The translations under genes and the position numbers were made by a program. Shown in pieces: positions 6,216 to 14,076 of a stretch of DNA of 64,000 nucleotides. The notes under the pieces are model-generated. The model worked only from the letters and a program-made list of their open reading frames with translations. It was not told where the DNA came from and did no database searches. The DNA is from an uncultured Gammaproteobacteria bacterium (lineage in GTDB: Bacteria > Patescibacteriota > Patescibacteriia > VMEV01 > CAYQCH01): NCBI GenBank assembly GCA_964415935.1, contig CAYQCH010000001.1, positions 1,144-65,143 on the forward strand, written 5' to 3'. Within the stretch, counting starts at the first letter, position 1, and every line of letters begins with the position of its first letter.

Positions 6216-6683
6216 TTAACGGGCAAAGTGGGCAAAGGCGCGGTTTGCCTCGGCCATTTTCTGCACGGTTTCGCGCTTTTTCATGGCTGAACCTTCTTTC
6301 TTGGCGGCATCCATGAATTCCTGGGCGAGCTTCTCTTGCATCGGCTTTCCCTTGCGCTCTTTGGCGGCATCGATGATCCAGCGGCAAGCCAGCAAAAACC
6401 GGCGTTCGGCCTTTACCTGGATGGGGATTTGGTAGTTGGCGCCACCGATACGGCGTCCCTTTACTTCCAATGTTGGTGCAACATTCTTAATGGCGGTTTC
6501 AAAAACCTCCAAAGGATTCTTTTTGGTCTTGTCTGCGACGACGTCAAAAGACTGATACACAATGCGCTGGGCCAGACTTTTTTTGCCGCGACGCATGAGG
6601 TAATTGATGAACTTCGCGACCTCCGCGTTCTGAAACTTGGGATCGGGAATGATTTCACGTTTTGGGGCTCGTTTTCCACGCAT
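6216..6683 (-). CDS. rpsG: 30S ribosomal protein S7
   Basis: 155-aa ORF MRGKRAPKREIIPDPKFQNAEVAKFINYLMRRGKKSLAQRIVY... typical of S7. Confidence 0.95.
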   Translation of the reverse strand: MRGKRAPKREIIPDPKFQNAEVAKFINYLMRRGKKSLAQRIVYQSFDVVADKTKKNPLEVFETAIKNVAPTLEVKGRRIGGANYQIPIQVKAERRFLLACRWIIDAAKERKGKPMQEKLAQEFMDAAKKEGSAMKKRETVQKMAEANRAFAHFAR

Positions 6684-8271: not shown

Positions 8272-9301
8272 AGTCTATAAACATGGCGTCGCCAAAAGAA
8301 AAAAATCGGTATCTTTTTTGTATAGCCTCGTCATAGGCTTTCCGTATAAATTGCTGCCCAGCAAAGGCATAGACGAGTGCGAGCAAACTGGAATGCGGCG
8401 TGTGAAAATTGGTAATGAGGGCGTCAACAGCCTTGAACTGATATCCCGGGTAAATAAATATGCGTGTTTCCCCGCTGATCTCCCGTGATTGGCCGCGAAG
8501 CGACGGATCAGAAAAGACTGTTTCCAAAACTCGGACGCTAGTCGTGCCGACAGCGACGATACGCCTCCCTTCTTGCTTGGCCTGGCGAAGCCGCTGAAGG
8601 GTTTGCGCCCCAAGCGAGTACCACTCGCTATGAATGGGATGATCTTCCACATGGTCGGTCTTAATGGGCTGAAAGGTACCGAGGCCGACATGGAGCGTGA
8701 CAAATTCCTGCTGTACACCTTTTTGGATTAGACGATCGATTAGTTCCTGGGTGAAGTGCAACCCGGCGGTAGGCGCGGCAGCGGAGCCGGAATCTTGGGC
8801 AAAGACGGTCTGATATAAGGCCGCATCCTTCAGCGTTTTTTTAATATACGGCGGTGTGGGCATGGTGCCGATGGTCTCTATGGCACGCACCAACTCCGCC
8901 CCGCTTTTATTGAATTGCACCGTGGCTGTGGGGGTTGAGGCTGTCGGCCGGGTTATGACGGTTGCCGCCAGGCTTTTCGAACAGGAAAGCCTCTCTCCTG
9001 TATCCGCTTTTCCGCCCAACAGGCACTGCCACATTCCCCGCCCCAAATCGCGCAGCAAAAGGATCTCCACACGGCCTCCGCTGCCGCGTTTGGCCAATAT
9101 GCGCGCTGGCAGCACCTTGGAGTTGTTAAACACCAGCACATCTCCCGCCCGAAGATACGAAAAAATTTCCGTAAAGGTCTTGTGTTCCGCCGAACGGGTT
9201 GCCCGATGAAGGATCATCAGGCGGCAAGCATCCCTCGGCAATACGGGCTCCTGGGCGATGAGTTCCTGCGGCAAATCAAAATGCAGTTCATCGCGGCGCA
9301 T
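8270..9301 (-). CDS. queA: S-adenosylmethionine:tRNA ribosyltransferase-isomerase
   Basis: 343-aa ORF MRRDELHFDLPQELIAQEPV...; QueA N- and C-terminal conserved blocks (ends ...FFSFGDAMFI). Confidence 0.85.
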   Translation of the reverse strand: MRRDELHFDLPQELIAQEPVLPRDACRLMILHRATRSAEHKTFTEIFSYLRAGDVLVFNNSKVLPARILAKRGSGGRVEILLLRDLGRGMWQCLLGGKADTGERLSCSKSLAATVITRPTASTPTATVQFNKSGAELVRAIETIGTMPTPPYIKKTLKDAALYQTVFAQDSGSAAAPTAGLHFTQELIDRLIQKGVQQEFVTLHVGLGTFQPIKTDHVEDHPIHSEWYSLGAQTLQRLRQAKQEGRRIVAVGTTSVRVLETVFSDPSLRGQSREISGETRIFIYPGYQFKAVDALITNFHTPHSSLLALVYAFAGQQFIRKAYDEAIQKRYRFFSFGDAMFID

Positions 9302-9306
9302 AGCGC

Positions 9307-10137
9307 TTAGACGCTCAATGGTTTGCCCTCCGCAACGCTCTTAGCCGAGTCTTTAGCGGTTGCGGCAGAGCCCTGTCCGCCATACCGGCGTGAACGACTG
9401 GAAAATTCTTCCAGGGCTTTGTCCAGTTGTGCTTCATCAAAATCCGGCCACAAAACGTCAGTAAAGTACAGCTCGCTGTAACTCATCTGCCACAGCAGAA
9501 AATTGGATAAGCGCATTTCCCCGCCTGTACGGATGATGAGATCGGGGTCGGGCTGGCCACGGGTATACAAATGCTGAGCAACAAGCTCTTCATTGATCTC
9601 TTTGGCGCTTTTCCCGCTTTCCACCAGTTCCTTAATGGCAGAAACGATTTCCGTCCTCCCGCCATAGTTAAACATGATGTTGCACTTGATGCGCTCGTTG
9701 TCTTTTAGCACCTCCACGGCTTGTTTCATGTTGCGCTGCACGCGTTCGGGAAGCCGGCGAAGTTCGCCCAAAAAGCTGAGGCGGACGCCAGACTGGCGCA
9801 TGCGTTTGACTTCGCGGCGGAGCCCGGTAACAGTCAGTTCAAACAGATCGGCGATTTCCGCCGCGCTGCGCTTTTTAAAATTTTCGGTGCTGAATGCGTA
9901 AAACGTTACAATCTGGACCCCGCGCGCCGCCGCCGCATCAACCATTCGCGACAACGTTTCCAGGCCGGCACGATGCCCGTCAGCGGTACTTAGGCCGCGC
10001 TGCTTTGCCCAGCGGCGATTTCCGTCCATGATGATTCCAATATGTTTCGGTACGCTCATATTCAAAGTAAAGAACCGCCGCGCGCAGGCGTGGCGGCGGT
10101 AATTGGCTATCATAGCCGAGGTTGGGGCCTGCGGCAA
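9307..10137 (-). CDS. uppS: Undecaprenyl-diphosphate synthase (cis-isoprenyl transferase)
   Basis: IIMDGNRRWA and the RTGGEMRLSNFLLWQ...SELYF motifs. The start may instead be Met27 (position 10059). Confidence 0.85.
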   Translation of the reverse strand: MPQAPTSAMIANYRRHACARRFFTLNMSVPKHIGIIMDGNRRWAKQRGLSTADGHRAGLETLSRMVDAAAARGVQIVTFYAFSTENFKKRSAAEIADLFELTVTGLRREVKRMRQSGVRLSFLGELRRLPERVQRNMKQAVEVLKDNERIKCNIMFNYGGRTEIVSAIKELVESGKSAKEINEELVAQHLYTRGQPDPDLIIRTGGEMRLSNFLLWQMSYSELYFTDVLWPDFDEAQLDKALEEFSSRSRRYGGQGSAATAKDSAKSVAEGKPLSV

Positions 10138-11523: not shown

Positions 11524-11525
11524 TA

Positions 11526-11553
11526 TAAAAACCTGCCGACCGGCAGGTTTTTA
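11526..11553. terminator. Perfect GC hairpin with flanking A-run and T-run just upstream of the LOG gene
   Basis: Sequence aaaaacctgccgaccggcaggttttta. Confidence 0.5.
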
Positions 11554-11871
11554 TACCAAACAAGACCACGGATCACTGCGCGCTTGGTGCGAATAAATTA
11601 TTAAGTCAGCGCGCAGGAAAAGCAATGTACGACTGTGGCATTGCTTTTAGCCAATGAGTCCTTGGCAGACCAAATCAAACGCATTCCATATCGTCCGCCA
11701 AGGTACTCATCTCGTCTTACGTGTCCCCAAATAAGACGAGACGAATGCATAAACATCAGCACTGAAAAGATCTATGGTCTTGACTGGCCACTTGGGATCA
11801 AGTCGCCATGAAATCGGCCACGCGGCCAAATAAACGACGGTACAATGAACGGGCCTTCCTTTTGGACATAT

Positions 11872-11968
11872 GCGGTTTTGAAAAGAGAGGGTTGAATTGC
11901 CATCCGGATGCGGAACCTGCTCTACGATGTAGAGAAAATTCAACCCTTATCCGTTTCATAACGGACTT
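11872..11968 (-). terminator. Multi-branched structured element plus U-tract downstream of lexA (complex terminator or 3' structured RNA)
   Basis: Minus strand reads tccgttatgaaacgga, then an 11-bp outer stem agggttgaatt / aattcaaccct. The outer stem encloses two hairpins (ctctac-atc-gtagag and the palindrome catccggatg). It is followed by ctctcttttc. Confidence 0.45.
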
Positions 11969-11997
11969 CTTTTCGTTTAAAAATTAGGTGGGCAGGG

Positions 11998-12618
11998 CTA
12001 TGACACGTGGGCGAAAGAACGAATCAGTCCTTTTACGACTCCCTGGATGATGGGATCAGATACGTAGATGGGTGACATGGAGGAATTTGCCGGCTGCAAT
12101 CGGATGCGACTCTTTTCTCGATAAAATCGTTTCAAGGTGGCGTAGGTGTTGTCCAAAAGCGCAACCACAATATCTCCATTCTTGGGGCTCGGATTGCGCT
12201 CCACAATGACGAAGTCCCCGTCAAGAATGCCATCTTCGATCATGGATTCCCCTTTTACTTTCAAGACGTAGGAATTAGCCGGATCGTCGACAAGGGTTAC
12301 AGGAACACCGATGGCATCGCGCTGCTCAACAGCTTCGATAGGTGAACCAGCCGTGATGAGCCCGACAAGCGGCAGGGAAACCGCTTGCGGCACCGGTAAA
12401 CTTTTTGCCGTCAATTCGATGGATCGAGATTCATTAGATGAGGTGGTAATGAACCCTTTTTCCTCCAACGTCTTTATATACTGATGGATGCTCGCCGGAG
12501 AGGAAAGGTTCAATGTTTCTGCAATTTCCCGATATGACGGCATGTACCCGAACTCTTGCTGATATTGGATAATGACATCCAGTATCTTTTTTTGCTTCTT
12601 GGTTAAGGTGTCGCCCAT
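11998..12618 (-). CDS. lexA: LexA repressor
   Basis: N-terminal winged-HTH (YMPSYREIAETLNLSSPASIHQYIKTLEEKGFI) and C-terminal S24 peptidase (VKGESMIEDGILDGDFVIVE...KRF). The cleavage site AG is present. Start is at Met17. Confidence 0.88.
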   Translation of the reverse strand: MGDTLTKKQKKILDVIIQYQQEFGYMPSYREIAETLNLSSPASIHQYIKTLEEKGFITTSSNESRSIELTAKSLPVPQAVSLPLVGLITAGSPIEAVEQRDAIGVPVTLVDDPANSYVLKVKGESMIEDGILDGDFVIVERNPSPKNGDIVVALLDNTYATLKRFYREKSRIRLQPANSSMSPIYVSDPIIQGVVKGLIRSFAHVS

Positions 12619-12660
12619 ATGATTTTGTTTAGGCTCTTGTCTACTGAAAACAGTATATAT

Positions 12661-12707
12661 GAACAAAACACGAACGTCAACGGAGCATTTTTGTTCGTGT
12701 TTTGTTC
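12661..12707 (-). promoter_or_regulatory. Candidate LexA operator: 15-bp perfect inverted repeat, each arm a GTTC-N7-GTTC unit, bracketing the lexA -35 and filling the -35/-10 spacer
   Basis: Sequence GAACAAAACACGAAC-(17 nt containing TTGACG on the transcribed strand)-GTTCGTGTTTTGTTC, then TATATACT (-10) about 38 nt upstream of the lexA ATG. Confidence 0.5.
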
Positions 12708-12725
12708 GTTATCCACAGTTTAAGA

Positions 12726-12752
12726 AAAAGCCCGGGAGATACCGGGCTTTTA
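12726..12752. terminator. Bidirectional Rho-independent terminator immediately after the htrA stop
   Basis: Sequence aaaaagcccgggagataccgggcttttatt: 6-bp GC stem, 6-nt loop, with an A-run and a T-run on the flanks. Confidence 0.7.
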
Positions 12753-12753
12753 T

Positions 12754-14076
12754 TTACTCTACATCAAACTCTCCTAACGTCACCCTCACCTCCTGCTCTT
12801 CTCCATCTTTTAGGACCTTAAGCGTTATGACATCTCCTGGATCAAATCGGCCAAGAATGCGGACCAGGCTTTGCTCGGCACTGACACGCTGACCATCAAT
12901 CTCTAAAATAATGTCGTTTTCTTCCAAACCCGCCTTATCTGCCGGGCTGCCAGGAATAACGGCCAATTCCTCGGGTTGTTCCCCGCGCCGCAACAAGGCG
13001 CCGTAATCCACAGAAAGCTTGTTGAGTTGCTGGAGCTGCTTATCAACAATCACATAACGGACGCCAAGATATGGACGAATCACGCGACCATACTCCTCGA
13101 TGCTTTCAATCAAGCGAATGGCATCATTAATGGGAATGGCAAACCCGATGGACTGGCCCTCCTGGCTTACGGCCGTATTTACGCCGATAACCTGACCAGC
13201 AATGTTTAACAAGGGGCCACCGGAATTGCCAGGATTAATGGCAGCGTCGGTCTGAATGACGGCCTCAAGCGTCTCTGCCCCGCCCGTGCCATCAGACGCG
13301 GTAACGCGGCGATTAATGCCGCTAATAACCCCTTTCGTGACCGTGTTATTGAACTCTCCAAGGCTGTTGCCAATGGCCAACACGGTTTGTCCGATGCGAG
13401 CGGTATCAGAAGAGCCTAATTCCAGGGCGGGCAAACTGACTTCTTCCTTTGTTTTAACGACGGCCAGGTCATTGACCGGATCAACGCCTAAAATTTCAAT
13501 TTCATGCTTTTGCCCGTCGCGCGTAAGGATCGAATACTTCGCATCTTTATCATTAACGACATGCTTGTTGGTGAGGATCAGCCCCTTCTCCGAAACAACG
13601 AAGCCGGTTCCGGCGCCGACTTGGACCAAAGATTCCTCCGTGTCGACAGGCACATCAGTTTGCGGTTGCGGCGTAGGCGGAACAATTTCAAATCCCGGGA
13701 AGTTGAAATCAAAGGGGAACAAATTCGGGCCCGTGGCCTGGCGTGCTGGTTTCTCCACGATGATGCTGACAACAGATTGGGAAGCCTCTTCAACCATGTC
13801 AATCAGCGCGGAATCTTCTACTGTCACTACTTTGGCCACGCGCGCGGACAAATCGCGATCCTGCCCTTTTGGTAAAATGCCATTTCCCTCAATGTACGAT
13901 GTGACCAACGCCCCGGCCACCCCGCCGCCCAACATGCCAAAAACGAGAACTAACGCGATAACTCCTCGGAGATTTGAAACGGCAATGTGCGTTTCCGGCT
14001 TCGACTGAGGTTTTTCATCGATCAAATGTGGTTCAAGCATATATTGTTGTAAAAATAACACCCATATATACCCCAA
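12754..14076 (-). CDS. htrA: HtrA/DegP-family periplasmic serine protease with a C-terminal PDZ domain
   Basis: Trypsin-like fold with catalytic GNSGGPL, an N-terminal TM anchor, and a PDZ-like C-terminus (LGVRYVIVDK...GSPADKAGLEENDIILEIDG). Confidence 0.85.
   Translation of the reverse strand: MGYIWVLFLQQYMLEPHLIDEKPQSKPETHIAVSNLRGVIALVLVFGMLGGGVAGALVTSYIEGNGILPKGQDRDLSARVAKVVTVEDSALIDMVEEASQSVVSIIVEKPARQATGPNLFPFDFNFPGFEIVPPTPQPQTDVPVDTEESLVQVGAGTGFVVSEKGLILTNKHVVNDKDAKYSILTRDGQKHEIEILGVDPVNDLAVVKTKEEVSLPALELGSSDTARIGQTVLAIGNSLGEFNNTVTKGVISGINRRVTASDGTGGAETLEAVIQTDAAINPGNSGGPLLNIAGQVIGVNTAVSQEGQSIGFAIPINDAIRLIESIEEYGRVIRPYLGVRYVIVDKQLQQLNKLSVDYGALLRRGEQPEELAVIPGSPADKAGLEENDIILEIDGQRVSAEQSLVRILGRFDPGDVITLKVLKDGEEQEVRVTLGEFDVE

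Follow-up and report, generated by a model that had tools for sequence, protein, structure and literature searches.

A LexA-binding motif of Patescibacteria was reportedly described by Sanchez-Osuna, Barbe and Erill in 2017 (Environ Microbiol 19:3465). The lexA control region considered here, located in a 64-kb stretch of contig CAYQCH010000001.1 (the whole analyzed DNA, hereafter the window), concerns the same phylum, the same gene and the same kind of site, and we follow the direct-repeat box within the promoter spacer across 80 + 23 promoters. A later paper of the same group (PMC7739468) cites this study among the cases in which LexA has independently evolved direct-repeat recognition. The tetramer GTTC/GAAC is the target of the LexA monomer in Firmicutes and Actinobacteria, and in Alphaproteobacteria LexA recognizes GTTC-N7-GTTC, a direct repeat (PMC4951493, PMC8565304). 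lexA promoters with several LexA sites are widespread among phyla, often as one strong and one weak site (PMC4951493, PMC8565304).

The region upstream of lexA in the window is very probably an autoregulated lexA promoter with two separate LexA operators, each a GTTC-N7-GTTC direct repeat with a T-rich spacer. Two arms of 15 nt each, GAACAAAACACGAAC (12661-12675) and GTTCGTGTTTTGTTC (12693-12707), are 100% reverse complements with 17 nt between them. Each arm is itself a GTTC-N7-GTTC unit, and the identity between the arms ends exactly at the box edges. Since lexA is a minus-strand gene, its promoter must be read on the minus strand, with the following features.

11998-12618, minus strand: lexA coding sequence, 206 aa, with its ATG start at 12618
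12652-12657, minus strand: -10 hexamer TATACT (consensus scan); TATATACT is kept in all close relatives
12661-12675, minus strand: O1, proximal putative LexA operator, GTTCGTGTTTTGTTC on the coding strand, matrix score 18.1
12675-12680, minus strand: -35 hexamer TTGACG (consensus scan)
12693-12707, minus strand: O2, distal putative LexA operator, an inverted copy, GAACAAAACACGAAC on the coding strand, matrix score 22.1
12709-12717, minus strand: predicted DnaA box, exact consensus, TTATCCACA on the plus strand and TGTGGATAA on the lexA strand
12726-12751, minus strand: intrinsic terminator of the upstream HtrA-like protease gene (terminator scan), the upstream limit of the lexA control region

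Along the lexA strand, the terminator (12751-12726) is followed by TGTGGATAA (12717-12709), a single base, GAACAAAACACGAAC (12707-12693), 17 nt ending in the -35 hexamer (12680-12675), GTTCGTGTTTTGTTC (12675-12661) and the -10 hexamer (12657-12652). The promoter matches 10/12 consensus positions with a 17-nt spacer in the consensus scan. O1 begins at the last base of the -35 hexamer and covers 14/17 spacer positions, while O2 lies upstream of the -35 hexamer, its center ~32 bp upstream of that of O1. Relative to the inferred transcription start, O2 would extend from about -62 to -48 and O1 from about -30 to -16. An earlier note on this DNA, made from the letters alone, had described this inverted repeat; its account of the arms, the 17-nt gap, the -35 and the -10 is correct in every detail, and both tetramers and the 7-nt spacing that it took for a LexA-box-like direct repeat are present in each arm.

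Perfect 15-nt inverted repeats with separate arms occur only three times in the window, and the other two are terminators with loops of 2 and 5 nt; the repeat at the lexA promoter is therefore not attributed to chance. The bare GTTC-N7-GTTC pattern is not enriched (three matches, two of them the arms, versus 1.9 expected), and neither this pattern nor the 15-mer with 3 mismatches shows any enrichment across the window beyond the two arms. A Patescibacteria weight matrix is more discriminating: apart from the two arms, its best score in the 64 kb is 13.3, inside a coding region.

The comparative sample consists of 80 lexA loci (L001-L080) from species-representative Patescibacteria genomes and 19 from the closest metagenomic relatives, and the matrix was trained on 47 Patescibacteria lexA-promoter sites, in which the spacer is T-rich. 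Across the 80 loci, exact GTTC-N7-GTTC occurs at 3.56/kb in the 250 nt upstream of lexA and at 0.049/kb elsewhere, a ~73-fold difference. A matrix match is found within 700 nt upstream of lexA in 74 of them; where it is 470-630 nt from lexA, a small gene intervenes between the promoter and lexA. The phylum consensus, cGTTCGgTTTTTGTTCGg, is a direct repeat whose period is 11 bp and whose spacer is T-rich, nearly always located directly after TTGAC and ahead of a TATAAT-like hexamer. All close relatives (LexA 75-95% identical) keep TTGAC[G/T]TTCGTNTTTTGTTC[A/G]TATA, with TATATACT as the -10. As every one of them retains this -35/box/-10 arrangement, the proximal arm occupies the operator position that is standard for the phylum. 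The operator, which the earlier note considered unusual, is of the kind usually found at Patescibacteria lexA promoters, and a second, inverted copy is itself present in 22/80 loci. This second box is mostly downstream, so that the pair brackets the -10 hexamer, and in the window's clade it is upstream, bracketing the -35 hexamer; convergent pairs in other clades are 26-27 bp apart. Compared to typical promoters of the phylum, which have one box or a second one downstream of the -10, the window is distinguished by a perfect inverted second copy upstream of the -35.

The distal box is less constant than the proximal one among close relatives. Compared with the reverse complement of the proximal box, it has 2-5 differing positions, and the start-to-start distance between the two boxes varies: most lineages have 62-63 bp, two have 29 bp, L001 has 52 bp and the window 32 bp. 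The nearest relative, whose LexA is 95% identical, has a distance of 62 bp and a degenerate distal box, which suggests that the perfect symmetry in the window reflects a recent local perfection of the second site. Since the distal arm is degenerate and its distance variable among close relatives, the two arms appear to behave as separate sites. Of the two possibilities raised in the earlier note, these data support a double LexA site giving autoregulation, the sites being putative, rather than a novel composite SOS box. Helical phasing of O1 and O2 was considered and set aside: distances of 32, 52 and 62-63 bp are near whole turns and 29 bp is not, and the independent events are too few.

The same box occurs at other damage-response genes. 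Separate dinB promoters in L024 and L007 carry GTTC-N7-GTTC, and public metagenomes contain at least 121 matches to TTGAC-N-TTCG-NN-TTTTGTTCG (L100-L219), ~110 of them with assessable downstream sequence. Among the matches listed, ~85 of the ~110 assessable ones adjoin SOS-type genes: 28 are upstream of lexA, 30 of Y-family polymerase genes, 3 of ImuB-like genes, 13 of imuA-like genes (identified by a weak Rad51-fold match), 8 of DinB/DinB_2 superfamily genes and 3 of a small ORF (open reading frame) followed by dinB. Y-family polymerase, imuA-like or DinB_2 genes adjoin ~57 of these listed matches. The earlier note had pointed to dinB and imuA-type genes as places to look for further copies, and in related and other genomes the box is present there; a lack of copies at canonical SOS genes, which the note had also envisaged, is not what these genomes display. 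The listed matches fall into a population of low-GC (guanine plus cytosine) Candidate Phyla Radiation (CPR) sequences and a high-GC soil population. In high-GC soil contigs (e.g. L104, L141, L144 and L182), the -35-plus-GTTC-N7-GTTC arrangement is found upstream of imuA-like, Y-family polymerase, DinB_2 and lexA genes, which is consistent with a direct-repeat LexA box having been reported beyond Alphaproteobacteria (Acidobacterium).

The gene controlled by this promoter is lexA, as the earlier note had it. The protein contains LexA_DNA_bind (PF01726, 6.9e-18) and Peptidase_S24 (PF00717, 3.2e-30) domains in Pfam, and scores 181 bits against the NCBIfam lexA equivalog TIGR00498 (cutoff 110.95). 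Alignment of homologues places its start at the ATG at 12618, not at the upstream TTG at 12666 listed by the ORF finder. All 27 aligned sequences (the window LexA and 26 homologues) share the cleavage site A90-G91 and the catalytic residues S125 and K163. We take these residues to correspond to positions A84-G85, S119 and K156 of E. coli LexA. The recognition-helix region, SSPASIHQYIKTLEEKG, looks to us, presumably, more like the Gram-positive type than the alphaproteobacterial one. Such a helix would fit an independent evolution of direct-repeat recognition, as suggested in PMC7739468. The box has the same tetramers, spacing and direct-repeat geometry as that of Alphaproteobacteria and Acidobacterium (PMC4951493, PMC8565304). 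The protein, unlike the alphaproteobacterial LexA, is a Patescibacteria LexA whose best homologues are all from Patescibacteria.

A mechanism consistent with this anatomy would be as follows. A LexA dimer bound at O1 would exclude RNA polymerase from the promoter, and O2 would act as an auxiliary site that either raises LexA occupancy or blocks upstream contacts of the polymerase. Upon DNA damage, RecA would stimulate LexA self-cleavage at Ala90-Gly91 via Ser125 and Lys163, which would free O1 and O2 and de-repress lexA. If the two boxes are LexA operators, the control of lexA is an ordinary SOS self-repression design in which the normal box of the phylum is doubled. For the most part, this would confirm a conventional self-repressed SOS switch in an uncultivated CPR bacterium, which is useful for annotation and unsurprising. 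More than one site for tighter autoregulation is also seen in the multi-box lexA promoters of E. coli (two boxes) and of Gamma-, Beta- and Alphaproteobacteria, Firmicutes, Actinobacteria and Verrucomicrobia, and the combination of one strong and one degenerate box in the close relatives matches the pattern of such promoters (PMC4951493).

Several points weigh against the assignment of two LexA operators. Known cooperative tandem LexA sites are palindromic boxes 1-10 bp apart (PMC4951493), whereas the boxes here are polar and inverted, bracket a promoter hexamer and are separated by 17 bp in the window and 14-48 bp in relatives. Because the 17-bp gap is outside that range, we refer to a double operator and not to a cooperative tandem site, and cooperativity between O1 and O2 is only inferred. 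The distal box is absent from one (L097) of the 13 close-clade loci analyzed, and in the other relatives it usually has one tetramer mismatch (e.g. GTACAAAATATGAAC or AAACAAAAAACGAAC) and is weaker than O2. The window contains no further high-scoring LexA-type site by the weight matrix, and a Pfam search of its ~33 large ORFs revealed no other SOS genes, recA, uvrA, dinB and imuA included. Part of the role of O2 may concern DnaA instead of simple extra repression, as O2 and its counterparts lie 1-4 nt from a DnaA box. Finally, the identity of the present box with the Patescibacteria motif of the 2017 study is presumed from the way in which PMC7739468 cites that study.

The DnaA box, located 1 nt upstream of O2, is the only exact match to the consensus TTATCCACA in the window; the earlier note did not mention it. 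Among the 80 loci, an exact box lies within 250 nt upstream of lexA in 45, and a box with at most one mismatch in 62. The density of exact boxes upstream of lexA is 2.35/kb, compared to 0.036/kb elsewhere (~65-fold), counts that are inflated by the shared ancestry of the promoters. Exact boxes away from the regions upstream of lexA number only 9, one of them beside the LexA box of the separate dinB promoter of L007. An independent metagenome sample gave a similar picture, with an exact box in 15/23 CPR lexA promoters (20/23 with at most one mismatch), versus 0/3 CPR dinB promoters and 1/84 high-GC matches to the -35-plus-box pattern, 63 of these 84 being next to an SOS-type gene. The placement of the box differs between groups. 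Many Uhrbacteria-type promoters have it at a fixed 21-23 nt upstream of O1, another group has it ~55-58 nt upstream, and Falkowbacteria-like promoters have it 33-45 nt downstream. In the window's clade, it is locked to the distal box, and 12/13 of the loci analyzed have a LexA-like inverted box 1-4 nt after TGTGGATAA.

These observations bear on an alternative in which the distal arm serves mainly as half of a module shared by DnaA and LexA. DnaA at TGTGGATAA and LexA at O2 would then compete with or contact each other, lexA would respond to the status of the replication initiator as well as to DNA damage, and O1 alone would provide classical repression. We regard this as doubtful, although it is the alternative with the most in its favor. 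The short gap between the DnaA box and the distal box is maintained while the distance from this pair to the promoter varies from 29 to 63 bp, the enrichment at lexA promoters of the phylum is strong, it was replicated with specificity for CPR lexA in the metagenome sample, and the spacing to O1 is constant in many Uhrbacteria-type promoters. There is also a precedent: DnaA and LexA jointly regulate uvrB and recN of E. coli, likewise with a DnaA box adjoining a LexA operator in a damage-response promoter (PMC8203912, citing Wurihan et al. 2018 and van den Berg et al. 1985). In our case, known from sequence, the target is lexA itself and not a downstream SOS gene, and the box is conserved in the phylum and specific to lexA. 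On the other side, binding of DnaA is predicted from a consensus match, and the consensus used by CPR bacteria may differ; the position and orientation of the box vary across the phylum (upstream in either orientation, or downstream), which is hard to reconcile with one mechanism; and the counts carry the ancestry effect noted above. The 1.22 Mb of collected loci contained no dnaA genes and no oriC-like clusters of DnaA boxes. The distal arm itself was ruled out as a second DnaA box, since on inspection it does not resemble TTATCCACA in either orientation.

Whatever the part played by O2, the phylum-wide DnaA box at lexA promoters may be the one new element of this system; no paper in the library searched deals with DnaA boxes of lexA promoters or of CPR bacteria. 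It is possible, if somewhat short of an even chance, that lexA of Patescibacteria is wired to the replication initiator, with a DnaA box maintained beside the LexA operators so that the LexA level is set jointly by DnaA status and damage, and that the inverted pair of polar boxes bracketing a promoter hexamer (-35 here, -10 in the Uhrbacteria type) is a recurrent design peculiar to direct-repeat sites. DnaA at this box might change lexA expression in either direction. Such a conserved, lexA-specific box would suggest that, in these organisms, whose regulatory repertoires are very small, replication initiation is directly linked to the SOS set-point. The comparative set also indicates that polar LexA boxes have repeatedly been used as inverted pairs around a core promoter hexamer.

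With two separate operators as the favored interpretation, the possibility that the arms constitute one large composite palindrome, read as a unit by a LexA tetramer or through a new binding mode, is improbable. The symmetry is perfect across the full 15 nt, the 7 variable spacer positions among them, it stops exactly at the box edges, and the centers are 32 bp apart, or nearly three helical turns, all of which speaks for a single site. However, the closest relatives have 2-5 differences in the distal arm and distances of 29, 52 or 62-63 bp, and in most Patescibacteria lexA promoters, as in every separate dinB promoter encountered, the box is either alone or accompanied by another on the opposite side of the promoter. 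As the arms of relatives diverge or shift, and most promoters differ in the number or side of boxes, the unit under selection appears to be the 15-nt box.

It is very improbable that the inverted repeat functions as a hairpin, that is, as a terminator or attenuator of read-through from the protease gene, or as a DNA cruciform. In the window, the predicted RNA fold is indeed stable (-26.8 kcal/mol, z = -4.4 versus shuffles). However, the predicted promoter lies inside the structure, so that neither complete arm would be within the lexA transcript. The upstream gene already has a proper terminator at 12726-12751, and no T-run follows the stem. Relatives lose complementarity outside the GAAC/GTTC tetramers without compensatory changes, and the local folds in L083, L087 and L096 reach only -12 to -14 kcal/mol. 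Searches of the region and the window with Rfam (gathering and E-value thresholds) and ARAGORN yielded nothing real.

That GTTC-N7-GTTC is bound by another regulator, or is a generic promoter-spacer element, is suggested by one box in a tRNA-Asp promoter (L021) and is hardly credible, given that the element is ~73 times as dense at lexA as in the remainder of the 472 kb of flanking DNA, which includes many other promoters, that extra copies occur outside the spacer and in both orientations, that LexA monomers of Firmicutes, Actinobacteria and Alphaproteobacteria are known to target its GTTC half-site (PMC4951493), and that the listed metagenome matches are dominated by lexA and translesion-synthesis genes.

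The host belongs to Patescibacteria/CPR. The closest LexA homologues (63-95% identical) are from metagenomes and from Patescibacteria, Parcubacteria, Falkowbacteria and Uhrbacteria genomes, and the window also encodes an LCP protein, F-type ATPase subunits, sigma-70 and primase. The monoderm-like impression recorded in the earlier note, which had cited LCP, fits such a host. The local gene order, ftsA-ftsZ-M23 peptidase-htrA-lexA-LOG-like-uppS-queA, is common to close relatives. In L081, the relative with a 95%-identical LexA, an extra gene for a 183-aa protein with no Pfam match (9069-9620, minus strand) is located between htrA and the lexA control region, and the module of DnaA-like box, distal box and promoter is unaltered despite this insertion.

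Downstream of lexA, and on its strand, there is a dinB-type (IMS family) gene in 31 loci, namely 30 of the genome set of 80 and L097 of the close clade. A cluster of lexA, a small ORF (~72-94 aa) and a dinB-type Y-family polymerase gene, 0.1-2.3 kb downstream of lexA, is widespread in Patescibacteria (L006-L067; L093, L096, L097 and L098). An 81-aa example of the small ORF belongs to no NCBIfam or Pfam family, its sole match being a sub-threshold one to DUF6504. In the window, a LOG-like gene follows lexA in place of this cluster.

The close clade conserves the 474 nt between lexA and its downstream neighbor (11524-11997), including where that neighbor is a different gene. This gap contains a stem-loop, a tiny basic ORF, a structured element and a terminator, which are given here together with the upstream neighbor of lexA.

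11524-11555: terminator after the structured RNA
11561-11782, minus strand: candidate structured RNA, ~220-300 nt, with a 13-bp closing helix and a conserved GGGGAC-loop hairpin
11798-11869, minus strand: tiny basic ORF MSKRKARSLYRRLFGRVADFMAT, 23 aa, its amino acids conserved with synonymous codon changes
about 11888-11948: stem-loop ahead of the tiny ORF
12754-14076: HtrA-like protease gene, upstream neighbor of lexA (Pfam Trypsin_2 and PDZ)

Homologues of the tiny ORF, 23-30 aa in length, are present in all close relatives and, by a strict pattern search, only in this clade; MSKRKARSLYRRLFGRVADFMAT matches no NCBIfam family. The structured element is a candidate new structured RNA and has no match in Rfam. 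Its equivalents in relatives (alignment A3) include L081 10836-11056, L083 3861-4101, L087 1845-2085 and L098 3431-3660, among others. Compensatory changes are seen at 12 of 25 pairs, compared to 5.1 +/- 1.5 in shuffles (0 of 500 shuffles reach 12), a result in which the 13-bp closing helix is favored, its 3' ends having been located by complementarity search. In the same alignment, 91% of cells are paired, versus 35-51% with the partners slid.

A single LexA-type box at a tRNA gene was observed in L021 (Uhrbacteria). The box (6419-6436, minus strand; score 22.5) is directly followed by TTATAAT and is located ~28 nt upstream of tRNA-Asp (6316-6391); the tRNA may be controlled by LexA, or the box may be a promoter look-alike that arose by chance.

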